Below, piece after piece: positions 28,103 through 49,933 of a stretch of DNA of 64,000 nt. The DNA is from a virus (lineage: Duplodnaviria > Caudoviricetes). Each line of letters starts with the position of its first letter. Position 1 is the stretch's first letter. Under the pieces are notes generated by a model, which had not been told where the DNA came from, ran no database searches, and saw nothing but the letters and a program-made list of their open reading frames with translations. Position numbers and translations under genes: made by a program. The DNA lies in IMG/VR virus record IMGVR_UViG_3300031857_000140, positions 2,017 through 66,016 of that record, one strand, 5' to 3'.

Positions 28103-28163
28103 CCAAAAAATATAACTACCTTTGAATCAGGAAGTAACGGCTATTGCCAAAAAGAAACTACCA

Positions 28164-29878: not shown

Positions 29879-29883
29879 TACCT

Positions 29884-31964: not shown

Positions 31965-31965
31965 A

Positions 31966-32944: not shown

Positions 32945-32989
32945 TGTTTTGAATTTTCGTCGTAAGTAATTTGGAATGACTGATAGAAG

Positions 32990-33576: not shown

Positions 33577-33597
33577 CGCAGAAGAAAAGATGATAGT

Positions 33598-33633
33598 GAA
33601 AAGAAAAGAGGGCGGCTATAAGGCCGCCCCCTT
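33598..33633 (-). terminator. Rho-independent terminator
   Basis: Minus strand GGGCGGC-cttata-GCCGCCC plus T-tract. Confidence 0.8.
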
Positions 33634-33637
33634 ATAC

Positions 33638-33913
33638 TTAGAACGGCAAGTCGTCGTCGGCACCGGCGGGAGCCTTCGATGCACCCGGCTTGGTGCTTGC
33701 TGCTTTGGGATTGAACACGCTAATGAAGGCGCTGTCGTCCGTCTTGATAACGAAGTCAAGGTTTACGCTACCACGTGCGGTAAGGTATTTCTTGAGCTCA
33801 TCAAGCTGTTCAGACTTGAACGAGATTGAGTACTTGCGTACGCCTGAATCGTAAGACTTAAGCTCGCCTACGTATCCAATATAGATGTCTTTCTTTTCCA
33901 TTTTGATTGACAA
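33638..33913 (-). CDS. Putative single-stranded DNA-binding protein
   Basis: Small beta-rich protein with acidic DDDLPF tail, next to exonuclease. Confidence 0.6.
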   Translation of the reverse strand: MSIKMEKKDIYIGYVGELKSYDSGVRKYSISFKSEQLDELKKYLTARGSVNLDFVIKTDDSAFISVFNPKAASTKPGASKAPAGADDDLPF

Positions 33914-34699: not shown

Positions 34700-34946
34700 T
34701 GTGGTATTTGTTGCTTAGTGAATTGTATGCCCCTTGCAGTTGGTCGGCTACCTCTTTTGCCTGCTTGGTTTCTATCATGTCTACAACGCTGATTGCTTTC
34801 TCAAGTTCTTCCATTGCCGTAACCATAGCTGGCACGTTGTATGAGCTACCGTAGTTAGATAGGATTCGGCCTGCAAGCATTTCAGCTTCCTTCTTTTTGA
34901 TATGTGGATGTTCCTTGAAATACTCAAGGTATTCTGATGGTTTCAT
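34692..34946 (-). CDS. Hypothetical protein
   Basis: ORF in tightly packed operon. Confidence 0.5.
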   Translation of the reverse strand: MKPSEYLEYFKEHPHIKKKEAEMLAGRILSNYGSSYNVPAMVTAMEELEKAISVVDMIETKQAKEVADQLQGAYNSLSNKYHNG

Positions 34947-35084
34947 TTCAATTTCTCTATGATTAAACTAAGTGCGTTGACATATCCTTCCCAGTACTTG
35001 GATTCGGTATCTCTACGGCTATACAAACATACGTTTCGATTGTATTGCGCCTTACGATATTGCTCAAGAATATCTTGGGATACG

Positions 35085-35417
35085 CTAATCTTTTCCATTC
35101 TTCTTTTTGGTTTTTTTGTTGCTTATGCTTTCCATATACTCATCATTGCGAATGCACATATCGCATACCCATTCAAATTCCCACATCTCATCTTCAGGAA
35201 ACTTTGGTTTTACATCATTCGGAGAGCCGCATCTATCGCATCGAATGCTATTCTCTAAGTCGTATGGAATCCATTCACCTGTATCCTTGAAGTCATTTGA
35301 TACCTCAACGTACCACAGGCCAAAGTCAAAGATGATAGACCACGTTACGTTTGGGTAGCGCAACCACGTTACGCCGATGGCGAACTGGTCAACGTATTTT
35401 CCTGATGTGATTTTCAT
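35085..35417 (-). CDS. Hypothetical protein with two CxxC motifs
   Basis: CDRC...CDMC. Confidence 0.5.
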   Translation of the reverse strand: MKITSGKYVDQFAIGVTWLRYPNVTWSIIFDFGLWYVEVSNDFKDTGEWIPYDLENSIRCDRCGSPNDVKPKFPEDEMWEFEWVCDMCIRNDEYMESISNKKTKKKNGKD

Positions 35418-35605
35418 TTCAATTTCTTTTCAAGGATTACTGCTAATGCTATAAGCAATACCCCAATGGTTAGCTGAATAGCGATTGGTGACAACACCCA
35501 CCACCAAGACCAATCGATATGGCCGGTAAGCTTTAGGGCAATGAATAAGAGTGTTAGGAGTCCAGAGAATCCAACGCTTGGGTATTTTTTTGGTTTGATT
35601 TCCAT
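35414..35605 (-). CDS. Small membrane protein
   Basis: LFIALKLTGHIDWSWWWVLSP motif common in phage membrane proteins. Confidence 0.7.
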   Translation of the reverse strand: MEIKPKKYPSVGFSGLLTLLFIALKLTGHIDWSWWWVLSPIAIQLTIGVLLIALAVILEKKLK

Positions 35606-35618
35606 TGTTAGGTTTTGT

Positions 35619-35798
35619 TTAGTTATTCGGAAATTCTCCGAGTTGGGTTTCATTTTTTGACAGCTCTACGATAAAGTCAGCGACCTTCTCGCACTGCTGT
35701 TTGTTTAGGAACTGAACGCTGCTAGAGTGGAACGTATGACGAATCTTATCGTACACCAACTTCTTTATCAGCTCCCACTTTTCTTCTTCTGTTCTCAT
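35619..35798 (-). CDS. Hypothetical protein (59 aa, MRTEEEKWEL...)
   Basis: Hand-translated; start lies inside the 25-bp repeat. Confidence 0.55.
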   Translation of the reverse strand: MRTEEEKWELIKKLVYDKIRHTFHSSSVQFLNKQQCEKVADFIVELSKNETQLGEFPNN

Positions 35799-36053
35799 CT
35801 CTCGTTGGTGTTAAAGGTTATGTATTTTTTTGAAATTTTTATCCTTTAAGTACTGCTTTCTCTTTTCTACTACTTTAAGTGCTTCATCGTATGTAGCCAC
35901 AATAGATTGACGTTTGTTATCATTCCAAGTGAAGTTAGGTAACAAACTATCAATGTATTCCCATTTAAACAAAAAGCATTGCTTTTCTTGTGCATAAAAC
36001 CCCTCTATTGTTTCTAATATTCTATACTTCATTTCTCGTTGGTGTTAAAGGTT
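35795..36053. repeat. 25-bp direct repeat TCATyTCTCGTTGGTGTTAAAGGTT at 35795-35819 and 36029-36053
   Basis: 24/25 identical, flanking gene 35811..36032. Confidence 0.9.
35811..36032 (-). CDS. AT-rich hypothetical protein (cassette-like)
   Basis: Start and stop both inside the repeats. Confidence 0.65.
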   Translation of the reverse strand: MKYRILETIEGFYAQEKQCFLFKWEYIDSLLPNFTWNDNKRQSIVATYDEALKVVEKRKQYLKDKNFKKIHNL

Positions 36054-36193
36054 TCGTTTAGGAGGTCTGCTAACTCTTGAGCATCTTCACCGATAGAGCC
36101 AATTATCTTTCCGTCTACAAGTACGTTGTATCCGTATTCATCACAGCATCCGTCTCCGCAGGTGTGCCAGTATGGTTGAAGTTCTATTTTCAT
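36029..36193 (-). CDS. Hypothetical protein (54 aa, CGDGCC motif, ends ETFNTNEK)
   Basis: Hand-translated; overlapping start/stop codons on both sides. Confidence 0.6.
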   Translation of the reverse strand: MKIELQPYWHTCGDGCCDEYGYNVLVDGKIIGSIGEDAQELADLLNETFNTNEK

Positions 36194-36492
36194 TTTAATT
36201 TACTCTTAATGTGTTCGTCAAAGTCTGAATACTTCAGTCCCCACGTTACACTGAACCACATCATCTCCTTCTCTGCATAGGCTGCTCGCAACTTAAGTTC
36301 TCGCATAAGGTACTTCTTGCCCCACTCCTCAAGTTGTTCGCCCTGAGCAACAGTCATAGTGTACTTCTGGTACCACTTGTCTACGCCAACGATGTCGTCG
36401 TAGTTCACGTCGTGTCCAGCAATCTCAAACATCTTATTGACGATGTCAATCATTGCCTTCTCCTTCTTTTGTTCTCTCGTTAGTCGTTTCAT
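36190..36492 (-). CDS. Hypothetical protein
   Basis: ORF with overlapping start/stop junctions. Confidence 0.6.
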   Translation of the reverse strand: MKRLTREQKKEKAMIDIVNKMFEIAGHDVNYDDIVGVDKWYQKYTMTVAQGEQLEEWGKKYLMRELKLRAAYAEKEMMWFSVTWGLKYSDFDEHIKSKLK

Positions 36493-36749
36493 TGCACATT
36501 ATGCTCAATTAGAATCTCCCAATAGTCGCCGTGGTCAACGAATCCTGATACGATTCCATCAAGCCCATACAGCGACATATTCGTGCCGACAGGTATATAT
36601 GGTCCCCCGCTTGGGTCAACGAATATGATGTTGTCATCGTTGTCCCATCCGAATCGTGTGTACTTGAAGTCTCCCTTCCAGTCAATGTTGCCGTTCTCAT
36701 TCTTTTCAAACGTGAACTCGTCTCCGTATCTGTTTGTGTACTTGCTCAT
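36489..36749 (-). CDS. Hypothetical protein
   Basis: NRYG...FVDPSGGPYI pattern. Confidence 0.6.
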   Translation of the reverse strand: MSKYTNRYGDEFTFEKNENGNIDWKGDFKYTRFGWDNDDNIIFVDPSGGPYIPVGTNMSLYGLDGIVSGFVDHGDYWEILIEHNVQ

Positions 36750-37108
36750 TGGAATGTTTGAATTTTAGCATCTACCTCTTTCAGCTCAGACCAAGTGCCC
36801 AAGTATGTGATAGCTCGCACCTTTCGGTTATCAATCCATACGTACTCCTGGCCATCCTTGATACGTGGCTTGTCCATCACCAGTCCGTGGTACTTGAAGC
36901 CATTGTCGCTTAACCACTTCTCAGTAACAGCTTTGTCCTTTGATTCCCTTGCGGTAAAGAACGTAATCACGTTACCCTCGTCGTACCATTTGTTGATGAT
37001 GCCAAGCGCATCAGGATAAGCAGATGCGCTGGCATACAGATGGCTGTCCTCGTTCTTGATGTCGTCGCATATCGTACCATCAATGTCTATAAGAAACACT
37101 CGTGTCAT
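36746..37108 (-). CDS. HAD-superfamily phosphatase
   Basis: IDIDGT, FFTAR, KP, WIDN. Confidence 0.85.
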   Translation of the reverse strand: MTRVFLIDIDGTICDDIKNEDSHLYASASAYPDALGIINKWYDEGNVITFFTARESKDKAVTEKWLSDNGFKYHGLVMDKPRIKDGQEYVWIDNRKVRAITYLGTWSELKEVDAKIQTFQ

Positions 37109-37521
37109 TGCTCAAGGTATTGGTAATGCGTTCCCTCGTTGCCGTTGGTTCCGATGATGTCCATTCGCCGGTTCAGCTCCTCTTCCATCTCTTCCCACTC
37201 TTGGTCGCGAGCGTGAGCGGAGCACGGCGTAATCGCCGGCTCTCGCTCTCCAGCTACGTAGATGTTAGATAGGGGCTGAGAGACAAACTCACGGATGCCT
37301 CGCTCGATGTTGAGATAGGTCTCCTCATCTTCTCCATCCCGGAAATTTCCATAGACAGAACCAAGCGTAGCCTCAAGCTCTTTTACCAATCCCTTGGCGT
37401 GGAACTTAGCACCCTTGCTGTATAGTTTACTATGGGTAAACTCATCCATGTACTCCAATCCAATCTGGAGGCAGGCCACCATCTTGATGATTGCCTCGTT
37501 GAGTTGTTCCTCGTTCTTCAT
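37105..37521 (-). CDS. Hypothetical protein
   Basis: ORF ending RMDIIGTNGNEGTHY. Confidence 0.55.
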   Translation of the reverse strand: MKNEEQLNEAIIKMVACLQIGLEYMDEFTHSKLYSKGAKFHAKGLVKELEATLGSVYGNFRDGEDEETYLNIERGIREFVSQPLSNIYVAGEREPAITPCSAHARDQEWEEMEEELNRRMDIIGTNGNEGTHYQYLEQ

Positions 37522-37694
37522 TCCCTATCCTTGTTGAAGGTATAGGCAACAGCTAAGAATCCTCCGAGCGCTACGAACGCCAGCTTTGTTGTTGCATCAT
37601 CGGCCACCAATAGACCGATAACGGATAGTATTGTACCGAAAAGGTATGTTTTCTTGTTGACCATTACTCGTCGCTTCTATCTGATGGTTCGTCG

Positions 37695-37729
37695 GAAAAA
37701 AGGAGCCAGGCCAAGACGGCCGTGACTCC
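37695..37729 (-). terminator. Rho-independent terminator after the SSAP gene
   Basis: Minus strand GGAGTCAcGGCC...GGCCTGGCTCC plus T6. Confidence 0.7.
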
Positions 37730-37776
37730 AATCATTCCGATTGCAAACGCTAACAATCCTAACGATTGTACTAACA

Positions 37777-38310
37777 TTAGGCCGTTACGTGTAAGCGAAG
37801 TGAGTGTGTCTGTTCCTCGCTGAGGATAGTACCATACTTAGAAATCACTGCATCAAAGCGTTTCTTGCGTTCAGGCGCATTGGCTCCCGCCTTGATATGC
37901 TCCGCAGCCTTCTCTAAGTCGGGGGCCGCCGATGCCTTGGGCGCAGATGGTAGCTCCTGCTTGGCGATAGCAAGCGATACTTCTTCTGCTGTTGCAATGG
38001 ATGACTCAACACCGATGCCGAGGAACCCAAGCGCACGACCTACGGCCGACGTCTCGCAGTTCTCCACGTACGATGTCTTGTTAATCATTGATGCCGACCG
38101 GTCTTCTTGAGCGAAGCCCGTAGCAGCGACAGCTCCCTTGCTGTCGCGTATGGTCGCCTTCATGACGCACATATCTGAGTCTATCGCTACCATCTCGGTC
38201 TCGATTGAATAGCCCTTGTACTCGGGCAGTTTACGCAGGGCAATAATGCGTTCGTTCACCTGAACGTACTCCTTGCCCTTGATGTTGGTTGTCTTTAGTT
38301 GGTAAGCCAT
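37777..38310 (-). CDS. Putative single-strand annealing recombinase (Rad52/Sak-like)
   Basis: IKGKEYVQVNERI...ENCETSAVGRAL..LGIG. Confidence 0.6.
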   Translation of the reverse strand: MAYQLKTTNIKGKEYVQVNERIIALRKLPEYKGYSIETEMVAIDSDMCVMKATIRDSKGAVAATGFAQEDRSASMINKTSYVENCETSAVGRALGFLGIGVESSIATAEEVSLAIAKQELPSAPKASAAPDLEKAAEHIKAGANAPERKKRFDAVISKYGTILSEEQTHSLRLHVTA

Positions 38311-38468
38311 TGATTTGAATTTGAATTAGTTAAAGTTAAGGAATCATTTTGAGTTGGACAAGTTGTACTGCATTACTTTCGCAATACCCTTGTCAAGTTC
38401 TACACCACAAGAGTAGTGCACAGATTGGATTTTTACCATCCAGTCGAGGTAGGACAATCGCTTCGGCG

Positions 38469-38807
38469 CTACGCCTTTGTCATTGCCACTTGAAATCTTG
38501 GTTCGAGCCATCCTTCTTGTATGTAAATGTTTCTAATGATATGCAGCATCTTCAGGAAGTGGGTTGCTGTTTGCAGCAGGCTCAGCTCCTTGTGGTGGTC
38601 TTTCCCAATGCGCTCATTGAGGAAGTGAATCTGTTCCCATGAGGTAGCACAGATTAGGTTGATGAATGACTTTCGGTTGTAGCGAGCTGACTCAATCAGC
38701 TCGTCGGCCCAGACGTGGTACTCGTTGTCCTTGGGGTTGGAGCCAAGTAACGAGTCCACCATCTGGTCAACCTTAGCATAGCTCGATTCTAATTTTCCAA
38801 ATACCAT
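38469..38807 (-). CDS. Hypothetical protein
   Basis: ORF on the coding strand of the block. Confidence 0.5.
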   Translation of the reverse strand: MVFGKLESSYAKVDQMVDSLLGSNPKDNEYHVWADELIESARYNRKSFINLICATSWEQIHFLNERIGKDHHKELSLLQTATHFLKMLHIIRNIYIQEGWLEPRFQVAMTKA

Positions 38808-39016
38808 AGGAATGCGAAAAATACCCAGGCAAGGAAGGCGATGAACGCCGCCTCTGCAATGATGTACACAAGCAAGCCGATAATCTTAGAATGTAGCGAG
38901 CCGTTGCCGGAGAACGCCATACGTATTGCAGTCAGGAAACTAACCATTCGATTGTTCTCATTATTAGGTAAAACAAAGCGTAGTGAGGAGCGTGGATAAC
39001 AATCCACGCAAGGGCC

Positions 39017-39232
39017 TCAATGTAGCGAGGGACTTTCTGTTTCTGTTCGTTCATGTAGGGTTAGGTATTTTTTGATTTCATCTATACTCTCCAAGCATTG
39101 CTTGGCTCTGAGGTTTATGCCCGGTATGTGCATAAGAGAGCTGTAGTCGTCCACGAAATGGAGGTTGGTCTCTATGCGAGCCAACTCCATCTCTATGGCG
39201 CTTTGCCAGGTGATTGATTCCCTAACGCTCAT
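39017..39232 (-). CDS. Hypothetical protein
   Basis: ORF overlapping upstream stop. Confidence 0.5.
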   Translation of the reverse strand: MSVRESITWQSAIEMELARIETNLHFVDDYSSLMHIPGINLRAKQCLESIDEIKKYLTLHERTETESPSLH

Positions 39233-39719
39233 CGCTTATGATTTCAGACACCATGAAGTCAGGCTTGTCCTCATGCTCGTTAATCGCATACTCGTCAAGC
39301 GGCGCTATCCACGAAGTCTTAGCAAGCTCAACAGCTTCCTGCGCGCTCTGCGCATACACGTTGTACACTCGCCGCATCGTATACCTAATCTCGGTGTCAG
39401 AGGTAACCTCGTACCGCTTTATCGAGCTTGCCGGAACCGGATGTTGCATTGGCTCCTTCTTTTCCTCGCCTTGGAAGATTACGCTCGTAAACGACTCATT
39501 CTTCACGCGTGGGTCGTAGGCAATCTCTACGAGCTTGGTGCCGTCGGGCACCTTGCGCATATCAAGACTGCTTGCTGTTATCTCCCGCGCACGCTTCTCG
39601 TTGTCGGCGTAGCAGTGAAAGACAGAGAAGGTTGGTTCTCCTTCTTGGGGTCGGCGGTCAAAGCCCTTGGCTCCCTTTCCACGGATGGGATTGGGGATGG
39701 TAATTACGAATTGTTTCAT
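39222..39719 (-). CDS. Hypothetical protein
   Basis: ATG after AT-rich leader and promoter-like element at 39747-39780. Confidence 0.6.
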   Translation of the reverse strand: MKQFVITIPNPIRGKGAKGFDRRPQEGEPTFSVFHCYADNEKRAREITASSLDMRKVPDGTKLVEIAYDPRVKNESFTSVIFQGEEKKEPMQHPVPASSIKRYEVTSDTEIRYTMRRVYNVYAQSAQEAVELAKTSWIAPLDEYAINEHEDKPDFMVSEIISDER

Positions 39720-39958
39720 TTTAATTGATGTTTTTGAATTTGATTTGTACAAAGGTTAATAAGAAAATTGAATTGTGCAACTATTTGCGTACTAATTGAA
39801 GCGTTCTCGCCCTAACATATTGACACTCAGCGATATTTCGTTGATTTTTTCTTCAAGATAATCTCGCATTTCTTCGTCATCAAAGACGTATTTGCCGTTA
39901 TCGTCGATGTAATACATCAGTGGGACAGCGATTTCGGTAGGAAGATTTCGGTTATTGC

Positions 39959-40153
39959 TCATGGTTGTTGGTTTTTATGTTGTTTCCATTCGAGGTAGAA
40001 GCCTATGGCGACCACCACATTCATACCCAACGACGCTATGATTTCATGAACGTCTTGGTAAACATTGGTCGATAGATGCACGTGCCCCACCATCCAAAAT
40101 GGTATGGACAAGTTTCCTGCTATCCATCGTATCGTGAAGTCAATGAATCTCAT
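39959..40153 (-). CDS. Small membrane protein
   Basis: Two hydrophobic segments. Confidence 0.55.
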   Translation of the reverse strand: MRFIDFTIRWIAGNLSIPFWMVGHVHLSTNVYQDVHEIIASLGMNVVVAIGFYLEWKQHKNQQP

Positions 40154-40680
40154 TGTCTTGACATAATCTTACGTAGCTTGGCCACGTAGTTAGGGTCTTC
40201 AGCGTAGTACCCATTGAGCAGTGATAGGAACTGCTCGTTGGTTCTGCAATGCTTGGCGTAGGTAGCGCACCACATCGCATAGTCAAGGACACTATCTTCC
40301 CACGAATCGTAGTAGGCGTGTCCGTGTTGGCTTCCACGCGCAAGGTTGATGCGCGTCTTGGCCTCCTTCATCCCAAAGAGATTGTTGTTCTCTACGAAGA
40401 TGTTAGACCTAAAGGTGTTGGTCTCCAGCTTGGCCTGAGCAACAGCTACATCAGCAAAGCGCACGTTGAGTTCCTTCAGCTTTGAGCGTAGGCGCTCTTC
40501 GCTGAACTGGTTGCCCATCCCACGCATTTGGATGATGCGCTCGTACTCTGTCGCATCGACCACGTTGATGGAAAGAAAGATAAAGGCAGCAGCCACAAAG
40601 GCTGCGCCTTTGATGATAGTGGTTCCAAAAGGAAGCTTACGATAAGTAAGCGTATCTGGATTGAAGGTGTATATACCCAT
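40150..40680 (-). CDS. Membrane-anchored glucosaminidase (GH73-like)
   Basis: AQAKLET, NNLFGMK, YDSWEDSV.DY, YAEDPNY..KL; N-terminal TM. Confidence 0.85.
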   Translation of the reverse strand: MGIYTFNPDTLTYRKLPFGTTIIKGAAFVAAAFIFLSINVVDATEYERIIQMRGMGNQFSEERLRSKLKELNVRFADVAVAQAKLETNTFRSNIFVENNNLFGMKEAKTRINLARGSQHGHAYYDSWEDSVLDYAMWCATYAKHCRTNEQFLSLLNGYYAEDPNYVAKLRKIMSRQ

Positions 40681-40682
40681 GG

Positions 40683-41255
40683 CTAATAGAAGATTTCCCT
40701 GCGGTCATAGTCATCGTAGCCATTCCCTTCGCTGTCCACCCATTGCTCTTTCTTTGGGTCATACTCTACAACCTTCTCATCGACCATGTAGGAGAACGTA
40801 CCCTCGACTATGCCATCCTCTCTGGTGTGCATAAGAGCGAACTCCTCTGATTCTTCCTCGGCTTCGACGATGAATTCAATGTCGGGGAACATCTCAAACA
40901 TCTTCTCCATTACCGGGATGGGATACGACCAAGCGGTAGAGAACATCACGCGCACAAGCGTATCGCTCTCGCGTTCAACAATGGTGTGGCAAGCGTTCCA
41001 CTTGGTGCCCCAATTCTCAACAGACCAATCGTACCAGTTGGGTATGTTGTTGGCCTTGCAATGCTCCTTCTCCTCCTTGCCGATGTTACCTCGGAAGATG
41101 TTGTCGGGCATAGGTATGATTGACTCGAAGTCAAACGATAGGCGCTCGTCTTCACGCTCTGCGCTGTTGTTCACCTTGGTTGTCTTCGCAAGGAAGGCAT
41201 CAAGGCTCTCTTTGGAGCCTGATGCCCTGATGATGTTATACGTCCAGTTCGGCAT
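40683..41255 (-). CDS. YubB/DUF1281-like protein
   Basis: MPNW..N, FDFESIIPMP, WYDW..ENWGTKWNA, FSTAWSYP. Confidence 0.8.
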   Translation of the reverse strand: MPNWTYNIIRASGSKESLDAFLAKTTKVNNSAEREDERLSFDFESIIPMPDNIFRGNIGKEEKEHCKANNIPNWYDWSVENWGTKWNACHTIVERESDTLVRVMFSTAWSYPIPVMEKMFEMFPDIEFIVEAEEESEEFALMHTREDGIVEGTFSYMVDEKVVEYDPKKEQWVDSEGNGYDDYDRREIFY

Positions 41256-41259
41256 AGTT

Positions 41260-41961
41260 TCAGTGTTTTAAGGTTATGACTTTATTTGGTTTTGGTTGGA
41301 TTAGTTTGCAATGTTCTGGGAAGTTGTATCGTTGGGTTGGAGATACGTATACTGCCGAGCCATGCTCTCGCCACATGGTTCTCACCACGCGCTTCTTAAC
41401 ACCCTTGAGGCTACCATTGGTAATCATTACTATGTCGCCAATCATAGGTTGTCTGCTTGCCTGTTCGATGGGTGTATTGTTAATGAACAGCCAATCTCGG
41501 TTCCAGCCCCAGGGTTCATTTGACAAATGGTAGTAGTCCGACACTACTTCATCTGAATTCATTACAATAAGAGGAGATGTCATCTGCCTTTCGACCGATG
41601 CTATCATGCTGTCGTTGTGGTTTGCTCTGTCCCTAAACATGAACATACCAGCCCTCATTTCATTGAAGCTCGTGCATAGCACACGTGTTCCGTTAGGTAT
41701 GTTTGCGGGCGCAGGCATAAGCCATTCTGTATAGAAACCTAATCCCGAAGCAGTCCTATCAAACGGAGACCATATTTTTACACAGCCATGCCTTGTGAGG
41801 GATTCAATGACGTACTCGTTACCGAATCTGTTGTTAGACCAGTTCGACCTTGGACACATATCCGACAGCATAACTCTGTCGCCCACACGTGGGTTTCTTG
41901 GGTCGTAGTTAAATGAGAAGCTAATGCTCTCTTGTACAACATCTATTTCTGGCATAATCAA
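41260..41961 (-). CDS. Hypothetical protein with repeated SH3/KOW-like modules
   Basis: VGDRV...EWL, GTRV...DWL, IGDIV...G.K. Confidence 0.5.
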   Translation of the reverse strand: MIMPEIDVVQESISFSFNYDPRNPRVGDRVMLSDMCPRSNWSNNRFGNEYVIESLTRHGCVKIWSPFDRTASGLGFYTEWLMPAPANIPNGTRVLCTSFNEMRAGMFMFRDRANHNDSMIASVERQMTSPLIVMNSDEVVSDYYHLSNEPWGWNRDWLFINNTPIEQASRQPMIGDIVMITNGSLKGVKKRVVRTMWREHGSAVYVSPTQRYNFPEHCKLIQPKPNKVITLKH

Positions 41962-41973
41962 TTAGGTTTTAGG

Positions 41974-42882
41974 TTATTGTTTGTCAGCAGCCTTGAAGCT
42001 GTTGTTCCATTCCATTTCTTCGAGCTTGTCAATCACCGCATCGGCAGATGCAGGGATGTAGGTGTAGCAGTCAAGGCATTCGCTGTTGAAGTTGACCTTG
42101 GCGTGCGGGTTTTGACACCCGCCGCACTTGAAGGTCTTGTCGATGAACGGCGCATCGTAGTCGTAGTCGTCTACCGAGTACGATTCGTAGGGGTACATGA
42201 TGCGCGTGTCCTCTACCTGGCGCCAGTATTCGTCGTCGTACTTGGTGCCGTACGCGCCGGTCGACGTGCCCTTGCTTGGTAATGTCGCCGTGCCGTAGCC
42301 ACCCCATGAAGACAATGGCTTGTACGAGTAGCTCTTGTTGGAGTACCAGTTGCCGTCGACCCATTCGCCAAGTCCCTCGTTGAAGATGCGGTAGTCACCG
42401 CTGTCGTCAAGGAAGATGAGCTTGTTGTCGCTCTCAATGAATCGGTAGATGCTTTCTTCAATGAATGGGTTGTCGAGCGTAGCAACGCTCGGCACTAACA
42501 TAGTAGAGAGCAGGTCTGCAAACTCTGCGGTGTCGGAGCGCTCACGTGTGCCGAGGCCGAAGATGATGCCGTTGTGTACGAAGCCAACAGAATCGGACAC
42601 GAAGAACGGATGCAAATACTCTGGCGTTAGGCCGTGCGTAGCGATGCGGAAATGGATGAGCATGGGCAGGTCGCCATACTTACCATGCACCTCGACATAG
42701 CGCTTGTAGAACTTCTCAAAGTTCTTGGTGCTGTTGGCGAGGTCTTGGTTGGGGAACTTCTCTGCGACGAGCTTGCCGTCGGCAACATAGAGTATGCCGG
42801 CGCCGTCGTCGTTGTTGTTCCATGAGTTAGACAGCTTGGTCTTGGCAATACGCTTGCCTGAATTAAGGATTGCAATACACAT
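41974..42882 (-). CDS. Class II (Ntn) glutamine amidotransferase
   Basis: N-terminal MC, N.DGAG, HFRIATHG, HPF, HNGII, SDT. Confidence 0.9.
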   Translation of the reverse strand: MCIAILNSGKRIAKTKLSNSWNNNDDGAGILYVADGKLVAEKFPNQDLANSTKNFEKFYKRYVEVHGKYGDLPMLIHFRIATHGLTPEYLHPFFVSDSVGFVHNGIIFGLGTRERSDTAEFADLLSTMLVPSVATLDNPFIEESIYRFIESDNKLIFLDDSGDYRIFNEGLGEWVDGNWYSNKSYSYKPLSSWGGYGTATLPSKGTSTGAYGTKYDDEYWRQVEDTRIMYPYESYSVDDYDYDAPFIDKTFKCGGCQNPHAKVNFNSECLDCYTYIPASADAVIDKLEEMEWNNSFKAADKQ

Positions 42883-42932
42883 AAGTAAATAGGATTTAGA
42901 TTAAACAATAGGATAGGAAAGGCATAGACAAA

Positions 42933-44552
42933 CTATGCCTTGGATGCAAGGAACTTGAGCGTCTTGTCGCTCACCTTGACAACGCGGTCGGTGTAATCTT
43001 GTCCGTCGCCGAGGTTACGGATAAGGTCGTAGCCAACATCAGCCCATTCCTTGATGTCCTCGATGCGGATGGAGATGCGCTTGCTCACACGCTTGAGCGT
43101 GCTTACGAAGAACTCCATGAGTACACCTTGCCCGGTCTTGCTGAACTGCAATGAATCGTACATGGCATCGGCAAACTGCGAGTACCAGCACGCAATGCGC
43201 AACAGCTTGACCTCATCGTACTGCTTGCGCAGGTGCTTGTGCAGTTCGCTGTTGCGGTTGAGCATCATCCGCTGCACATCTGTTGCCGTAGCATTAGGGT
43301 ACTTGACCATGATACGGAATAGGTCGCGCCGCCATAGCAACGTAGCTACGTCATGCACACGAGATACGATACGGAACTCAATGTAGTCGTGCTTGATGTT
43401 GAACGACACGTAACGCTCGTCGCGGGCAAGGTACTTGTCTGCCTTGGCGTAGGCACGCGACCAACGAGAGGTCGCACGCTTGCGGTACAAGGCAAGGAAC
43501 AGCGGCATGAACGATGCGTACTGCTTGAACAAGTCGCTACCCGAAGTACCCACCTTGCCGAAGTTGATGTGCCCACCGCATGAGGTAGTGGAGTCGGCGT
43601 TGATGTGGTCTTTGAGCAGTTCGCTGCCGGCAATGTCCGTGTCAAGTCGGTCGGACAAGAGGTCGTAGGTAGGTGAGACAAGTTCGTACCCGGTGTCGTC
43701 GTTGAGCGAGCCATCGCGCTCGCGTGACCATCCGGTAGCATCGACCTCGTACAATTCGTATCGGTCAAGTATTTTGCCGTCTTCCTTCTCTACCTCAAAG
43801 CCAATGGTAAAGAGCGTACCTGCCGTGGTGTAGGTGTTGCGCGGTCCGCTGTGGTAGTCGTGGCACGCGCCCTCGCCCGGTTCCTCGGTAGAGTACACGT
43901 CCGGGCCTTCGTGCCAGAATATGCTGTTGCCTACGTCGCTCTCGTGGTAGTATTCTTGTACATCGTCGGCGTACACTGCGTTGTCAAGCCAAATGTTTTG
44001 GCCGTCGTAGCGACCGCCACCGCAGTACACGTACTCATCCTCGTGGTCAGCGGAAAAGTATAGGTCGCCCTCAATCTCTACGATTAGGTCGCCGTACTCG
44101 CTGTCAAGTACGACAACATCTTGCCGTTCAATACGGCATTCTGTTACCTCGTCACGCAGGGCATACTCGCCCTCGTGTTCGCTTGGTGCTGTTAGCACAA
44201 CACACTGCGACAGCGGATGTTCTTCGCCGTCGTAGGTGGTTACCATTTCTACATCTTCTTCTTGCATGGTTTCTTGGGGTTGGTTGGTTGGGGTTACTTG
44301 TTCTATTGTTAATCCTGTGTCAGCTTGAGCAACAAGCTCAAGCCATTCAGGTACGTACACGTGGGACTCGTTGTCAATGTCAAGTTTGTAGCGCGTACGC
44401 TGTCCGACCGGGTAGTGGTCGTATTCAACTACGCCAACAATTCGCCCGAAGTATCTATTCAGAGCCCACATTTGCGGGGTAATTGAACATGGCCCTTCGT
44501 AGGTAGCATGGAGGTTTAGGCGAACAAGGTCGCCGACATTTAAGGTACTCAT
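42933..44552 (-). CDS. Putative amidoligase (glutamine synthetase-like fold) with acidic N-terminal extension
   Basis: IGFEVE, DGSL, ELVSP, CGGHIN, RY..FN, IEFR; start uncertain. Confidence 0.8.
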   Translation of the reverse strand: MSTLNVGDLVRLNLHATYEGPCSITPQMWALNRYFGRIVGVVEYDHYPVGQRTRYKLDIDNESHVYVPEWLELVAQADTGLTIEQVTPTNQPQETMQEEDVEMVTTYDGEEHPLSQCVVLTAPSEHEGEYALRDEVTECRIERQDVVVLDSEYGDLIVEIEGDLYFSADHEDEYVYCGGGRYDGQNIWLDNAVYADDVQEYYHESDVGNSIFWHEGPDVYSTEEPGEGACHDYHSGPRNTYTTAGTLFTIGFEVEKEDGKILDRYELYEVDATGWSRERDGSLNDDTGYELVSPTYDLLSDRLDTDIAGSELLKDHINADSTTSCGGHINFGKVGTSGSDLFKQYASFMPLFLALYRKRATSRWSRAYAKADKYLARDERYVSFNIKHDYIEFRIVSRVHDVATLLWRRDLFRIMVKYPNATATDVQRMMLNRNSELHKHLRKQYDEVKLLRIACWYSQFADAMYDSLQFSKTGQGVLMEFFVSTLKRVSKRISIRIEDIKEWADVGYDLIRNLGDGQDYTDRVVKVSDKTLKFLASKA

Positions 44553-45003
44553 CACATCAAGTTTTTTGCTCACGTATTGCACCTCGTGGGCATGGGTGTT
44601 CCTCGCATCATCAAGCCCTGCGAGGTTAGGCTTTGGGGGTTGCTTGGTCACGAACCAACGCACTCACTCATAAAAACGAACACAGAAAAGTTTTGAGCAG
44701 TGGGCAACCCTGACGTTAAGAGTTTGGCTCCGTAGCCAGAGCAATTAGAAAAGAGAAAAGAACTACCGACATAGCACCAGCAATTCCAAAGGCGAGCGCA
44801 GTGGGCGCTTCAACAGCTAAAAAAATATCGTACATGGTTTCTACTTTGTTAGGTCAGCAATTTTATTAGGGTCAATCGTTCCGTACATTTTGTGTACTTT
44901 GTTTAGGTATGCTTTCGCATCCTTGAACGCCTTGCTTCGCTCGTCGGCATACATATATGCGTGCCTTGCATTGCGTATTCTTTGCAGTTCATTCAGTGCC
45001 ATA

Positions 45004-45237
45004 TCATTCAAGGTCTAACTGGTTTGTAACTGGATTGAAATACCTTTCGGTCATGCCCATTAGCGTACGTTTTCCATTGATGTACCAATAAGACGGAGCG
45101 CTAATAAAATAGCGCCCGTCGTCTTGCTTGGTTACACTAAAAGAGCGCATAGTTTGCCCAAAGAACGAGAGCGCTTCGCTCGTGAAGAATTTGGGCGCAG
45201 TTTGCGCGGTCAATTCTTTGATGTCTTCAATAGTCAT
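45004..45237 (-). CDS. Early hypothetical protein
   Basis: MTIEDIK...FF..AL.FFG; start overlaps upstream stop. Confidence 0.6.
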   Translation of the reverse strand: MTIEDIKELTAQTAPKFFTSEALSFFGQTMRSFSVTKQDDGRYFISAPSYWYINGKRTLMGMTERYFNPVTNQLDLE

Positions 45238-45461
45238 AGCAAAAATGTTTTTTCCTCTTGTACAAATTGCTTCCATTTAGCGTCCTGGTCATTGTAGACC
45301 TGCGCTATTTGCTCACGGAACGCGCCGTACTTGTTGAACGCTTCGGTTTGGTAGAACTTTTCGCTAAAGGTTTCGTACATACTAAATAGGAAACCAACGC
45401 CGTGCGCGCGTTCAATCTTTGCTAACGTGCGTACGTGCTTGCTTGCTTGTGTCCGTTTCAT
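45234..45461 (-). CDS. Early hypothetical protein
   Basis: ATG after AT-rich leader, downstream of terminator. Confidence 0.55.
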   Translation of the reverse strand: MKRTQASKHVRTLAKIERAHGVGFLFSMYETFSEKFYQTEAFNKYGAFREQIAQVYNDQDAKWKQFVQEEKTFLL

Positions 45462-45484
45462 TTTCAATTCAATTAGCATTAAAC

Positions 45485-45511
45485 AAAAAAGGCGCACCAA
45501 TTAGGTACGCC
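45485..45511 (-). terminator. Rho-independent terminator ending the putative first early transcript
   Basis: Minus strand GGCGTACC-taatt-GGTGCGCC-TTTTTT. Confidence 0.8.
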
Positions 45512-45744
45512 GTTCAACACGGAAAAACGTAGCAATTCGCTACCATACGTTAGGGCGCGGCATTTTATGCCGTTAGCCCTTCGCATAGCCGCATAGGTTT
45601 GTACATAGTACGTGCCGTTTGCGTTCGCGTTTTGCTACGTTTCCGTCCGTTTTTTTCAAGGTGTGCACCCTTGTGCGGCATAAGTATGCCGACCTTTTGC
45701 GCTATGCGCCTATGTGTACCGCACCTTTTGTGCGTTCGGGTCTA
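45512..45744 (-). ncRNA. Candidate structured RNA element
   Basis: No ORF in the track; 11-bp long-range stem (45525-35/45632-42); two CGGCAT-loop-ATGCCG hairpins. Confidence 0.45.
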
Positions 45745-45951
45745 CTAACGTGCGGCCTTTAGCGCGCGTTTTCGTTCGCGTTCGGCTTTTCGTGCTGTGC
45801 GCTTGTCAATTCCTACCGCTACCGCATTTTGTACCGCGTCGTTAGCATATTGGGCGCGCGCTTTTCTCGCGGAACTTTTGCGCCCTTTGGCGTTGGTACG
45901 TGCTTCGCGCGTTCGTTTGCCTTGTTCGCTCTCGCGCCATATTAGGAACAT
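45745..45951 (-). CDS. Arg/Lys/Ala-rich small protein
   Basis: KRTREAR..KGRKSSARKAR and KRTARKAERERKRALKAAR. Confidence 0.6.
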   Translation of the reverse strand: MFLIWRESEQGKRTREARTNAKGRKSSARKARAQYANDAVQNAVAVGIDKRTARKAERERKRALKAAR

Positions 45952-45960
45952 AACAGCCGC

Positions 45961-46299
45961 CTATTTTTCAAGTTCGGAAATGATAGCGCGCAGGGTGCTT
46001 ACTTCGTACTTGTCCACGAATTCGCCCAAACGAATTTTACCTAATTTGAGCGCGCGCGTTTTGGCGAACGAATCAAAGAAAATAGGCTGAGTTCGGCTAA
46101 TTGCGAATGTGCGTAGGTACTTCGCGCCCTCTTTTGGCGGCATTTCCTTTGCCTTGACAATTTTACGCAGGGCGAAAAGGGCGCCCTCTTCGGCGCTCTC
46201 ACAGCCGCCAATTTTGGGGACTAATTCGCCTTTAGTGTTTTGTTGGTACATAACGCGTCCGAGGTCGGCGCGGCTTGGGGTTTTTTGAGTAGTGTTCAT
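45961..46299 (-). CDS. Putative first early protein, unknown function
   Basis: ATG about 35 nt after the predicted sigma-54 start site. Confidence 0.65.
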   Translation of the reverse strand: MNTTQKTPSRADLGRVMYQQNTKGELVPKIGGCESAEEGALFALRKIVKAKEMPPKEGAKYLRTFAISRTQPIFFDSFAKTRALKLGKIRLGEFVDKYEVSTLRAIISELEK

Positions 46300-46344
46300 T
46301 TTGTCTTTATTTAATTGGGGCTTCGTTGCCCTTACTTACTATGA

Positions 46345-46361
46345 TGCAAAGGCCGTGCCAA
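46345..46361 (-). promoter_or_regulatory. Sigma-54 (RpoN) -24/-12 promoter
   Basis: Minus strand TTGGCACGGCCTTTGCA matches YTGGCACGRNNNTTGCW at every position. Confidence 0.75.
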
Positions 46362-46398
46362 AGTGTAGAAAAGTAGAAAAAAATACCTTATGCGCTTA

Positions 46399-46465
46399 AT
46401 TTAGAATGGGTCTAAATAAGGGCGAACGGACAAGAGAAACACTATTTAGAATCGTTCTAAATAGT
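46399..46465. promoter_or_regulatory. Two palindromic operator sites ATTTAGAATnnnTCTAAAT
   Basis: 46399-46417 and 46444-46462; the second extends to 11-bp perfect arms (46441-46465). Confidence 0.75.
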
Positions 46466-46769
46466 AGGGCGGTTCGGGGCAAAGGGTCAACGTGTTGGGG
46501 TTTGGGGGTTTTTGGGGTGGGGGTTGTGCCCGACCAAAAAGGCACAAGGGGCAAGGGGCGCTACCTGTTGCACCACGAGAAGCCCGAACCACAAAACGCC
46601 AAAACCGAAAACGAAAAACAAAACGGAAGGCACCCCGTACCAAAATGGAAATGACTTCGGGTTGCGGTGGGTGTGGCTGTGGGGGTGGTAGTATCCCCTC
46701 CAAAAACATTTCTCAATCGGTTTTAAGGGTCAAACCGAACCCATAAATCCTGCGTGAGATTTTGCGTGG

Positions 46770-47177
46770 TCATTTGGAGCGACGTTCAGCTGTTATGATT
46801 GTATGACAATTGGCACAGCGGATTTCGCATTTGCGTATTTCGGCTTTGATTACTTTGATGGAGTTGCCGCAGTAAATCATGGATGAGACGTCGTTCTTTT
46901 TGTCGGACAGGTGGTCGAACTGGAGAACGCGATGGTCGGTTGTACCGCAGTCTGTGCATTTACCGTGAAGGCGTTTGTAGCGGTCTACGAATGCTCTGTT
47001 TCGGTCACGTTGGGATTTGTTCTGTGCTACGCGGGTATGGCTGTTGGATGCATACCATGAGGCTGAGCGTTGGGCAGAACAGCTTTTGCAGGACGACTGT
47101 AGGCCGTCTGATTTGCGTTTGTTCTTGGAGAACTCTGTGAGTGGCTTTAGGGTAGCGCAGCCAGGACAGCGTTTCAT
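46770..47177 (-). CDS. HNH endonuclease with N-terminal Cys4 domain
   Basis: CPGC..KP..EF.K...DGL.S.CKSC; CTDC...FDH...CANCH. Confidence 0.85.
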   Translation of the reverse strand: MKRCPGCATLKPLTEFSKNKRKSDGLQSSCKSCSAQRSASWYASNSHTRVAQNKSQRDRNRAFVDRYKRLHGKCTDCGTTDHRVLQFDHLSDKKNDVSSMIYCGNSIKVIKAEIRKCEIRCANCHTIITAERRSK

Positions 47178-47631
47178 GGACGTGAATATAGCTGTCATTG
47201 ACCGCATTGGTGCTACATGACGAAAAAAAAGAGAAAAGGAAAGGGGGATTCAATATGTTTGACAAAACAACGTAAGTATCTGTGAATCAGATAATTCATG
47301 TCTATCACATTGCCACTGCTCACGTCAGAGCATAGTGCGCCTGTATTGTTGTTCTTTGCTGTGTGCTACTGCGGTGTAGCGCTGATGTGGTCTGGCGTAG
47401 TGGTACCAGAGTCCTTCGTTCGTGGTGCCCTTCGTTGCTCTGCCCCTGTTTTGAGACAGGGGCGACGCTAGTGCGTCGGCGATGTCGGTGGTGCTGCCGC
47501 GGTGTCCTTCGGCTTAAGCGAAGTTAGTTCACAAAACCCGAACTAAGTTCACCGAAAACAAGATTGTAGATAAGTTTATGTAACGAGTTCCATCCATTCA
47601 CTATATTTGTTCTGTCACAATTCTACATCCA

Positions 47632-48159
47632 ATGGTTGGTTACATCTACAAGACTACCAATAAGGTAAACGGCTTCGTCTACATCGGACAGCATCAATGC
47701 AGTTTCTTTGACCGCAAGTACCGCGGCTCAGGTAGCATATTCAGGCAAGCACTAGAGGAACACGGCTGGGACAACTTCATCACCGAGCTGGTATGCTGGG
47801 CAGAGACCATAGAGAAGCTCAACGAGCTTGAGATACTATGGATTGATGCACACAAGGGACAGAAGATGTACAACATCAGCAAAGGAGGAAACGGAGGAGC
47901 TAAGTACATATACGTGGACCTGCAGACGAAACTCATCTACGTAGGCGTTAGGTCAGCAGCAAAAGCAGCAGGTGTTGGAGTAGATGCATTCAACAAATGG
48001 GTCAACGTAGGAGGAAACTCAAAAGGCCTAACGGAATACTACGAAAACAACAAGAACCCAAACTTCAGGGAAAAGCCAAAATACCTATGGATAACACACC
48101 GATGGGCCAGGCTGAAAACAACAGATATGCTAAATATGAAAAACCCTATATTTGCATAA
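47632..48159 (+). CDS. GIY-YIG homing endonuclease
   Basis: YIYKTTNKVNGFVYIGQH, YRGSG, E..WI, YNISKGG. Confidence 0.9.
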   Translation: MVGYIYKTTNKVNGFVYIGQHQCSFFDRKYRGSGSIFRQALEEHGWDNFITELVCWAETIEKLNELEILWIDAHKGQKMYNISKGGNGGAKYIYVDLQTKLIYVGVRSAAKAAGVGVDAFNKWVNVGGNSKGLTEYYENNKNPNFREKPKYLWITHRWARLKTTDMLNMKNPIFA

Positions 48160-48206
48160 GGAAGGCCAACAGCCAACCAGCAGGATTGTGACAAATTCTT
48201 ATAGAG

Positions 48207-48236
48207 AGGGGAGCCCTAAAGCTCCCCTTTTCTTAT
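48207..48236. terminator. Terminator between convergent genes
   Basis: AGGGGAGC-cctaaa-GCTCCCCT plus T-tract. Confidence 0.8.
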
Positions 48237-48847
48237 TTCAACCAGCTGTAGTACTGCTTGGTGCGGCTAGCGCGGTCATCAAGACCGTGCGTGCCGCCAT
48301 TCACCCGCTTGGTCAATGCAAGGATGGTTTCGTCCGTAACGCCCTTGTCGCAGATGTCCCACAACTTGTTCCTATCAAAGAAGAACCGAGCACTATCAAA
48401 AGCAAACTCAGTAGCAACAGCATCTGGCTTCTCCAACAGCTCAGGTTTCTTCAGCCACTTAGCAAACGCCTCGTAGTTGGCCTTACCGGTAAGTTGCAAC
48501 GCACCACGACCACGGTACTTCCATCCATCTCCTGATGCCTCATCACCGTTGCCCATGCGTGAAGCATACACGCGGTTAGCAATCTTTTCCGGCTTGCGCT
48601 CGTACTCCTTAGCCAAAGCCTCCGTCGGGAAGTACTTCTTGAAGATGCCAAGCAATCCCTTAGCCGAGTAGTTGAGGTTCTCTGAGAATGCCTTGAAGCC
48701 ACCCGTCTCATGCGCGGTCTGTCCGAAGAAGTGAGCAGCGCGCTCTGGACTCAATCCGTAATGCTTTGCCGCTGCCTTGATGGTGCCAGGACCAAACGCC
48801 CCGTCAGGTGTTACACCAATCTTTTCCTGTAGTGATTTCAAGCTCAT
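48233..48847 (-). CDS. Endolysin, GH19 (chitinase/lysozyme-like) with N-terminal peptidoglycan-binding motif
   Basis: LQEKIGVTPDGAFGPGT; AHF.GQ.AHETGGF...ENLNYS; YRGRGALQLTG..NY; T.RVNGG..GL.DR. Confidence 0.92.
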   Translation of the reverse strand: MSLKSLQEKIGVTPDGAFGPGTIKAAAKHYGLSPERAAHFFGQTAHETGGFKAFSENLNYSAKGLLGIFKKYFPTEALAKEYERKPEKIANRVYASRMGNGDEASGDGWKYRGRGALQLTGKANYEAFAKWLKKPELLEKPDAVATEFAFDSARFFFDRNKLWDICDKGVTDETILALTKRVNGGTHGLDDRASRTKQYYSWLK

Positions 48848-48984
48848 CGTCCTTGTGCGTTATAGGGTTTGGAATAGTTCTTAGAGCCTTTGTTATTAGA
48901 AGCCTTCTTAGAGTGCTTTCCGCGCTTCTTGCTCTTGCTTACAAACTTTGCAACAGCTTGTAACTTACCTGTCTTACCAGCCAT
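48844..48984 (-). CDS. 46-aa basic protein (GKHSK...KPYNAQGR)
   Basis: Hand-translated; stop overlaps endolysin start. Confidence 0.6.
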   Translation of the reverse strand: MAGKTGKLQAVAKFVSKSKKRGKHSKKASNNKGSKNYSKPYNAQGR

Positions 48985-49061
48985 TATTCGGGTGTTATGT
49001 TCAGGAGTAAAACTACTAACTTTGTCTCACTTACTTAGGTTTGAAAACGCTAAAAAGACTT

Positions 49062-49658
49062 ATGAAAACCCCAAAGAAACCCAGCTACGCCAAAGGAGGC
49101 TCGCTGAAACCAGTACAGCCCAGCCAGACTGGACTGTCTAAGCTTCCCACGGAAGTGCGTAACAAAATGGGATACATGATGGGCGGCGGTAAGCTGGGCA
49201 TGATGTACCAAAACGGAGGAATGATGGGCGGCAAAAAGAAGCAAGTACCACCTCGTAAGATTACCGACGTGCTTGACCGCAACGGACGCGTAATCTCACC
49301 CGAGCGCCGCAAGCTTGAAGCAGCAGCTGACGCCATGAAGCTCAAGAACGCCGAGGCTACCTTCAACCGCAACGCCAAGGCACGCGAGATGCAAAACCTC
49401 ACCGAGATGCGCAATCAGCTCAAGAGTTCCGACCCGGACGCCGTTGCAGCATTCGACCGCAGCCTCAAGGCTAAAGGCATGATGGTGGCCAAGCGCCCAG
49501 TCAAGAAGATGGCCAAAGGCGGTGTGATGAAGAACACCAAAGACAACAACAGCTACATCTCTAACGCTGTTGACATGAGCCCGTCAACGAAGAAGCAAAT
49601 GGAAGCCCTGCGCCAAGCCATGATGTACTTCACCGGCGTAAGCCCAAAAAACAAGTAA
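49062..49658 (+). CDS. Basic protein with repeated [YM]xxGG motifs
   Basis: YAKGG, YMMGG, YQNGG, MAKGG; TAACTTTG at 49017. Confidence 0.7.
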   Translation: MKTPKKPSYAKGGSLKPVQPSQTGLSKLPTEVRNKMGYMMGGGKLGMMYQNGGMMGGKKKQVPPRKITDVLDRNGRVISPERRKLEAAADAMKLKNAEATFNRNAKAREMQNLTEMRNQLKSSDPDAVAAFDRSLKAKGMMVAKRPVKKMAKGGVMKNTKDNNSYISNAVDMSPSTKKQMEALRQAMMYFTGVSPKNK

Positions 49659-49693
49659 CAACAACTATATATTTGTAACACAAAACCAAAACG

Positions 49694-49933
49694 ATGAAAA
49701 AGTACCGCACCGCCAAGAAATACCAAAACGGAGGCAAAACTGTTCCCACCAAAACTACCAAGCCTGCTGCAAAGACTGCAGTTAAGAAGCAAAGCCCATA
49801 CGCTACCGAAGGCGAGCGCCTTGGCTCAGCACTGAAGCGTGGCGACTACATGGGTGCAGTTAAGGAAGCAGGTCAGTCTCTAGCTGGAATTCCGAAGGAA
49901 TTCGTTGGAGCACTGAAGCGCTCACTGCGCTAA
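49694..49933 (+). CDS. Small basic protein (YQNGG)
   Basis: TATATTTG at 49668; followed by a terminator. Confidence 0.65.
   Translation: MKKYRTAKKYQNGGKTVPTKTTKPAAKTAVKKQSPYATEGERLGSALKRGDYMGAVKEAGQSLAGIPKEFVGALKRSLR

Follow-up and report, generated by a model that had tools for sequence, protein, structure and literature searches.

A conserved structured RNA between a basic-protein gene and an intrinsic terminator in an uncultured phage: a candidate antitermination-type element

Downstream of the gene of a very basic 68-aa protein, the minus strand of an uncultured phage genome encodes a conserved structured RNA with a core of about 240 nt (45481-45718; covariance model R1), which has an intrinsic terminator at its end. 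Judged by its covariation, this RNA is a new family in a small clade of uncultured phages, without an entry in Rfam 15. Its layout recalls that of processive antitermination systems, and we tentatively regard it as a cis-acting transcription gate of that type, a reading that is quite possible, if still short of probable. The window, i.e., the whole stretch of DNA analyzed here, has a length of 64,000 nt and corresponds to bases 2017-66016 of a virus record that is 66,016 bp long and has direct terminal repeats. All positions are those of the window unless a relative is named.

The locus and its relatives

Read along the minus strand, the locus consists of a 112-aa ORF (45961-46299), which is the first gene of the presumed unit, the ORF of the basic protein (45745-45951), 283 nt without a credible ORF and the ATG of a 75-aa ORF (45234-45461; ATG at 45461). 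The Arg-rich 68-aa ORF and the non-coding stretch behind it had been singled out in a first-pass annotation made from the letters alone, and both are present: 21 of the 68 residues are K or R, and the protein ends in ...KRTARKAERERKRALKAAR. A blastn search with 44700-46400 against 50,697 phage records yielded no match. An alignment of the relatives of the 68-aa protein retrieved nine metagenome loci, all of which share the region (L017 ends inside the RNA), and a fourth, more distant lineage (L033/L034) was found via the downstream 75-aa protein. Over the 299-nt stretch with the RNA, L012 is 100% identical to the window, L014, L011 and L013 are 96.7-98.3% identical, L018 and L019 are 77% identical, and L015 and L016 keep both ends around an unrelated centre. 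The order of 112-aa homologue, basic protein, RNA, terminator(s) and 75-aa homologue is kept in four lineages. Homologues of the 112-aa ORF occur in L019 (126 aa), L016 (112 aa) and L033 (106 aa). Those of the 75-aa protein occur in L019, L016, L002 and L033, and this conservation even in distant relatives argues that the 75-aa gene is real. The distance from the U tract of the terminator to the next ATG is 22 nt in the window, ~26 nt in L019 and ~36 nt in L033.

The 68-aa ORF differs from its counterpart in L016 by 22 synonymous and only 3 non-synonymous codon changes (13 and 0 versus L013), and on this pattern it is a real gene under purifying selection. Its family is tiny, with 6 matches at E<=1e-3 among 1.84 billion representatives, one of which is a 536-aa repetitive protein; besides close relatives, it includes relatives of 62% identity. 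In the AF2 model, the N-terminal part folds into short helices and residues 27-67 form a single long one (pLDDT 75, pTM 0.35). Neither the protein nor its alignment has a match in Pfam, PHROG or PDB, even at E 10, and a Protein Atlas search with the 68-aa and 112-aa proteins gave no usable match. We had presumed a resemblance of the N-terminus to ribosomal protein bS21, an idea that was dropped given the lack of a Pfam match even at that threshold. A presumed amidoligase likeness of a 576-aa protein of the phage was dropped on similar grounds (no Pfam match at E 1).

Weak homologues of the basic protein (E 1.5e-5 and 9.6e-5) occur in two distant phages, at L036 1495-1743 (-) and L002 ~3047-3271 (+). 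They sit after the 75-aa homologue rather than before it, between the 75-aa and 56-aa homologues, and the two records that hold them (G001 and G003) contain no R1 match. In L002 (G001), the sequence after the weak homologue has no strong fold (z -1.21), and the + strand from 1000 to 4200 is devoid of a terminator-like site. Either the gene may have moved in these phages or the match may be compositional.

Fold, covariation and terminator

Folding of the minus strand at 45462-45760 gives -110.8 kcal/mol, versus -87.85 +/- 4.47 kcal/mol for 200 shuffles (z -5.13), none of which is as good; the + strand of the same region reaches z -3.82. The single-sequence folds have z-scores of -5.16 (window), -5.06 (L016), -6.66 (L019) and -4.06 (L033), and those of the window, L016 and L019, obtained independently, share one architecture. 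From 5' to 3', the RNA is composed of three short hairpins, an A-rich linker, a long helix with a variable tip and the terminator, all on the minus strand. The first hairpin, H1 (45699-45709; GCGC-AUA-GCGC), is directly preceded by an invariant ACAUAG and has a stem that is invariant in three lineages; in L033 it reads UCGC-UAA-GCGA. H2 (45676-45691; CGGCAU-ACUU-AUGCCG) carries compensatory changes in L019 and becomes GCGGCC-UAU-GGUCGC in L033. H3 (45657-45673) has a 5-bp stem, with two compensatory pairs in L019, and a 7-nt loop, GUGCACA, for which similar 7-nt loops can be read from the sequences of L019 (GAGACCA) and L033 (AGAGCCA). The linker at 45650-45656, seven A residues followed by CGG (AAAAAAACGG), is invariant in three lineages and takes the form A5-CGG in L033 (AAAAACGG). 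Then follows a large domain (45519-45650), in which a closing helix of ~20 bp (arms 45627-45650 and 45519-45540) is set over a three-way junction from which two long hairpins emerge (45590-45623 and 45542-45589). The long-range stem that the first-pass annotation had seen is found again at 45525-45540/45627-45642, where 16 nt are 88% complementary. A spacer of 7 nt separates the large domain from the terminator.

RNAalifold on 8 sequences predicts 80 pairs, of which 17 show compensatory changes. The covariance model R1, built from five sequences, recognizes the RNA once in the window (282.9 bits) and matches L011-L016, L018 and L019 over its full length. In the R1-fitted alignment (9 rows, 6 distinct sequences, three lineages), 95.1% of the cells of 76 pairs are paired and 21 of these pairs show compensatory double changes, numbers to be read with the small base of three to four lineages in mind and with the leaning of a model-fitted alignment to its own structure. 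None of 500 shuffles reaches any of five measures, and sliding the partners by 1-3 columns leaves 0-3 such pairs. On this covariation the non-coding stretch is a real conserved structured RNA, a result in line with the novel non-coding RNA that the first-pass annotation had put forward as its alternative. The G-U pairs are strand-specific and, together with the better z-score of the minus strand, indicate that the RNA is transcribed from that strand. Small internal ORFs were considered as well, but a coding role was rejected, as their frame is not preserved (an indel at ACGGACGG versus ACGG-CGG) and the substitutions follow the pairing.

The core is also well conserved in relation to its surroundings. 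It is 98.3% (L014), 97.9% (L011), 97.1% (L013) and 77.1% (L019) identical to the window, compared with 75.6-99.0% for the flanking segments in L014, L011 and L013 and 65.8-68.9% for those in L019. Four of five comparisons have it as the best or near-best conserved segment, and only L016, with its swapped centre, deviates. There, an unrelated sequence has taken the place of the large domain and folds once more into a long helix over a three-way junction. In L033 (R1 17.9 bits, E 4e-5), H1 and H2 are present with other stem sequences, H3 is weak and the large domain is a single plain 11-bp hairpin. From the swap in L016 and the differences in L033, the conserved parts are the 5' module, the linker, the long helix and the terminator, with the tip of the large domain free to vary.

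Hairpins of the form CGGCAT-N3-6-ATGCCG occur exactly twice in the 64-kb window, as H2 and at the tip of the large domain (45558-45572), where 0.01 are expected and none of 100 shuffles gave two or more. The idea that they are two equivalent boxB-like hairpins found no support, since the common CGGCAT/ATGCCG stem exists only in the window's own lineage: the two stems of L019 differ, the second hairpin of L016 lies in the swapped domain and L033 has its plain hairpin at that place. Further complementary stretches that had been noticed are real but lie outside the conserved nested fold. They connect 45702-45714 (in the 5' module, overlapping H1) with 45584-45596 (the junction strands) over 13 nt (92% complementary), and 45582-45598 with 45692-45708 over 17 nt (76%). 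The former pairing would exclude the consensus fold; its CAUAG/CUAUG complements are also present in L016 and L019, and by sequence it could be an alternative conformer or a pseudoknot. As a long-range pairing between 5' module and junction (CAUAGGCGCAUAG with CUAUGCGGCUAUG) it was rejected, as a fraction of 0.05-0.31 of the shuffled domains reaches duplex energies as good in four sequences.

Searches for the RNA elsewhere stayed empty within their scope. For four lineages against Rfam 15 at E<=1 to 5, no family comes near its gathering score; the best overlaps are TarB (22 bits; gathering 80) and cow-rumen-3 (18.8 bits; gathering 86.7). The combined motif has 0 matches in 185,579 species genomes, R1 has none in the whole records of five more distant relatives, and a search for related loci with query P0010 found none. 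A scan of viral_contigs for the two invariant RNA motifs returned, besides the window's own fragment, chance matches in coding regions of unrelated phages.

The element at 45484-45511 is an intrinsic (Rho-independent) terminator: a G+C-rich hairpin (45511-45491; 8 bp, of which 6 G-C, with the 5-nt loop UAAUU) is followed by U6 (tail TTTTTTGTTT) and is kept in relatives. The first-pass annotation had rightly placed such a terminator before the next genes. Its U tract lies 22 nt ahead of the ATG. It is among the two strongest minus-strand terminator-like sites in 28000-47999. In the R1 alignment its helix is 100% paired, with one pair changed on both sides and two on one side. All lineages retain the terminator; in L019 it shows compensatory and wobble changes, and L033 has two of them in tandem.

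Phage and transcription setting

The + strand of the phage encodes a terminase, a portal, tail fibres and a protein whose C-terminal domain is of the crAss 'muzzle' type. The minus-strand block from ~28.4 to 48.8 kb holds a primase-helicase, an exonuclease, endolysin-like genes and numerous small ORFs. Shine-Dalgarno sequences are absent from the phage genes, and ARAGORN detects 0 tRNA or tmRNA genes in the window. The nearest cultured relatives of the terminase are found in Flavobacterium (39.7% identity) and Cellulophaga phages, which makes a Bacteroidota host likely. An 1834-aa protein of the virion gene block (21028-26532, +) contains a single DYDGD motif at residue 1082 and has no Pfam match; it is a candidate virion RNA polymerase of the crAss type. 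The Bacteroidota-type -7 motif TANNTTTG occurs 44 times in the whole window versus 39 times in shuffles, which is not above shuffles, and 39 of the 44 copies are on the + strand. From 35031 to 49750, the minus strand has no copy; its gene block may be read from other promoters or by a different polymerase.

A candidate promoter/operator region (46399-46490, minus strand) lies upstream of the 112-aa ORF. It comprises a promoter-like site, TTGACC-18-TACTAT, at 46490-46461 and two ATTTAGAA-N3-TTCTAAAT palindromes (46399-46466) that are 45 bp apart, one of which overlaps the promoter-like site; site and palindromes alike are pattern matches. The palindromes look like operators of an early promoter. 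A third palindrome of this type is located at 28902-28924. In the distant relative L002, the HNH gene is followed by a motif of similar sequence, CTAGAAT..TTCTAAAT (1040-1090). On the minus strand between 46461 and 44000, no sigma-70-like site was found. An independent promoter behind the terminator, which the first-pass annotation had weighed against its own proposal, did not turn up in the pattern scan, as there is no promoter-like site between terminator and ATG.

Just upstream of the unit of 112-aa gene, 68-aa gene and RNA, a free-standing HNH gene (46770-47207, minus) and a GIY-YIG homing-endonuclease gene (47632-48159, +) bracket ~420 bp of non-coding DNA. An HNH gene is present at the same place in L002, L019 and L033. 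Compared with the window, L016 (645-1470) and also L015 carry an 825-bp insertion with two extra ORFs (108 and 90 aa), which adjoins the upstream side of the promoter region of the 112-aa ORF and holds a terminator similar to the one after the RNA. The insertion was rejected as a second copy of the RNA, as it has only this similar terminator behind the two extra ORFs.

Candidate roles of the RNA

As a gate, the RNA would be co-transcribed from the minus strand with the two upstream small genes (112 aa and basic 68 aa). Polymerases coming from upstream would halt at the terminator unless the folded nascent RNA, acting on them in cis, makes them terminator-resistant, possibly with assistance of the basic protein encoded just upstream, and the downstream genes would be read only upon such read-through. 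Because the 75-aa gene starts 22 nt past the U tract and the site at 46490-46461 is the only promoter-like site on the minus strand for kilobases upstream, its transcription presumably must pass the terminator (two of them in L033). The sequence data then leave three options: regulated read-through mediated by a factor, where the RNA would act on the polymerase with or without the basic protein, a fixed leakage, or a second polymerase that ignores the terminator. We favour the first because of the constrained single-stranded motifs and loops close to the terminator, the fixed linkage to a basic-protein gene and the precedents of N/nut, put and conAn. Against a gate, a partial, unregulated read-through would likewise express the downstream genes, and the weak homologues of the basic protein in G001 and G003 have another position, in records that lack an R1 match. 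In addition, the DYDGD protein and the precedent of a virion polymerase in phage phi14:2 imply that the antitermination logic of host-type polymerases may not apply.

The likeness to lambda N/nut, HK022 put and conAn is, as an analogy, one of layout only; searches in Rfam, Pfam, PHROG and PDB found no homology to N, put or conAn. The functional idea of the first-pass annotation, which had taken lambda N as a model, is plausible in outline. The order of gene, RNA, terminator and gene, without space for a promoter before the last, recurs in four lineages, while an N-family or any other protein-family match is missing. Lambda and our phage have in common that the first transcription unit (a presumed one in our phage) includes the gene of a small, very basic, largely helical or unfolded protein as well as RNA hairpins, and that a terminator (tL1 in lambda) gates, or in our phage would gate, the next genes. 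However, the RNA of the present phage comes after the protein gene instead of before it, and measures ~240 nt with a long helix and a junction, where nut has one short hairpin. A nut hairpin is of the boxB type, i.e., a 5-bp hairpin with a pentaloop and an upstream boxA. The hairpin loops here have 3, 4, 7 and 3 nt, although the stem of H3 does have 5 bp. The likely host differs as well (Bacteroidota), and the 68-aa protein has no protein-family match.

The put RNA of HK022, in the available text of PMC9378689, is a ~70-nt RNA with two stem-loops that works without a protein. It is a cis-acting folded nascent RNA between promoter and terminators that does not rely on an alternative pairing of the terminator (PMC9378689), as the RNA described here would be if it is a gate. 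Our RNA is situated directly before a terminator, and its put-type position with respect to an upstream promoter depends on the pattern match at 46490-46461. Compared by size and architecture rather than by sequence, it differs from put (PMC9378689, available text) in its ~240 nt, its modularity and its constant place beside a basic-protein gene. A further comparison is that with conAn on Gram-positive conjugative plasmids, where, according to the available portion of PMC8191782, a protein gene is directly followed by a ~300-nt RNA that antiterminates in cis at the start of a long operon. That RNA is bracketed by a long inverted repeat and holds stem-loops; antitermination is the work of the RNA, to which the protein contributes processivity. 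In pLS20, ConAn1 comprises at least 172 codons, and the first terminator is 1475 bp downstream (PMC8191782, same portion). A large RNA directly downstream of a protein gene is shared with our phage, in which this position is found in four lineages. The differences are the 68-aa protein, the terminator only 7 nt past the RNA and the phage instead of plasmid background, a comparison made by size and not by ConAn1 sequence. A literature search found no closer comparable phage RNA.

A more specific version of the gate, which we consider rather doubtful, is a new two-part processive antitermination system of Bacteroidota-type phages, made up of a 68-85-aa Arg/Lys-rich helical protein and a modular ~240-nt RNA. 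Protein and RNA would together reprogram the polymerase, of the host or carried in the virion, so that it reads across the terminator(s) between the first two genes and the remaining non-structural block. With equal reserve, such a system might be unrelated in sequence to N/nut, put or conAn. Since the basic protein of L016 is still 96% identical despite the swapped central domain of its RNA, any RNA binding by this protein would not be directed to that domain. To our knowledge, few processive antitermination systems are known. The examples discussed in PMC9378689 and PMC8191782 belong to lambdoid phages or to Gram-positive bacteria, including the conjugative elements of the latter. If true, the gate would carry such control into Bacteroidota phages, given nearest cultured relatives that infect Flavobacterium and Cellulophaga, and would offer a defined RNA for tests on the polymerases of these phages.

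The strongest competitor of the gate, although we consider it on the unlikely side, is a stable non-coding RNA acting in trans. Such an RNA, with its 3' end set by the terminator, would be freed from the early transcript or have a transcript of its own. It would act on a target of the host or the phage and might do so in a ribonucleoprotein that includes the basic protein. Expression of the downstream genes would then depend on leak-through or on another polymerase. A multi-domain fold that is often better conserved than the flanking genes is what a functional RNA in itself would display, and like sRNAs it ends in a terminator. This alternative also gains from the doubt over which polymerase reads the block, raised by the DYDGD protein and the strand bias of TANNTTTG. 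A precedent is the crAss-like phage phi14:2. According to the accessible part of a preprint (10.1101/2020.03.07.982082), the early genes of this phage are read by a virion polymerase, and two long intergenic regions of its early block give very abundant, persistent non-coding RNAs. Both phages would have sense-direction non-coding transcripts within an early block, and our phage shares the crAss-type virion proteins and the Bacteroidota background (terminase relatives in Flavobacterium and Cellulophaga phages). Nonetheless, the g004-g006 non-coding stretch of phi14:2 is ~1.7 kb long, its last 300 nt fold with z -1.0, and R1 has no convincing match in the early region (best 9.1 bits). No promoter-like site is found in front of the RNA in the window, and in L019 only ~6-8 nt separate the RNA from the stop codon of the basic-protein gene, too few for a promoter in between. 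As L016 and L033 show, the central domain tolerates exchange and reduction, and the place right before the next ATG, kept in four lineages, looks cis-regulatory. If the RNA acts in trans, it would join the abundant, unexplained early non-coding RNAs of phi14:2 as a small, well-folded example. Whichever of these two readings applies, gate or trans-acting RNA, it is a new RNA family with covariation support that Rfam 15 does not contain. In phi14:2 itself (L029), a terminator-like hairpin is present ~20 nt before the ATG of g006 (4560-4581), and the non-coding DNA before g006 contains a tRNA T-arm-like sequence, GGGGGUUCGAAUCCCCC (4470-4500).

A passive operon end appears improbable. The terminator would then attenuate transcription by a fixed fraction, and the RNA would shield the 3' end of the upstream mRNA from exonucleases or direct its processing. 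A strong terminator with a structured region upstream suits this explanation, and no extra factor is needed. However, 3' protection requires a terminator hairpin only. Left unaccounted for are the upkeep of 76 pairs, a conservation exceeding that of the flanking coding segments, the invariance of single-stranded motifs (ACAUAG and A7-CGG) and the similar 7-nt loops of H3.

A riboswitch or protein-dependent attenuator, in which a ligand-binding fold would choose between terminator and antiterminator pairing, is very unlikely. The succession of conserved fold, terminator and gene is the classical riboswitch layout, but no convincing choice between two pairings was found here. When the transcript is folded only up to the terminator loop, the large domain stays intact in all three lineages tested. 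For the 5' arm of the terminator, the only partner left is one of 5-6 bp (GGUAC), which occurs in the window and L019 and is lost in L016; a GGUAC/GUACC antiterminator helix was dropped as too short and not conserved. A search for mutually exclusive terminator and antiterminator pairings, by folding without the 3' arm of the terminator, accordingly found no conserved competitor, which makes a classical attenuator unlikely and fits the processive mechanism better. The replaceable central domain and the lack of an Rfam riboswitch match further weaken the case.

That the element acts at the DNA level, as operator palindromes, an origin or another protein-binding site, is barely credible: its two CGGCAT palindromes look operator-like and the unrelated viral contig L010 has CGGCATTACATGCCG repeats, but the palindrome spacers differ (3 and 4 nt), the relatives keep the pairing and not the palindrome sequences, the G-U pairs are strand-specific, and a long nested fold with compensatory changes is maintained. 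L010, a high-GC contig, is the only sequence besides the window's fragment that a scan for the twin-hairpin pattern returned, and its palindromes are operator-like. At 1470-1620 it carries three copies of CGGCATTACATGCCG, with related half-sites nearby, which are probably protein-binding sites. The half-site that they have in common with the hairpins of the window seems to be a coincidence.
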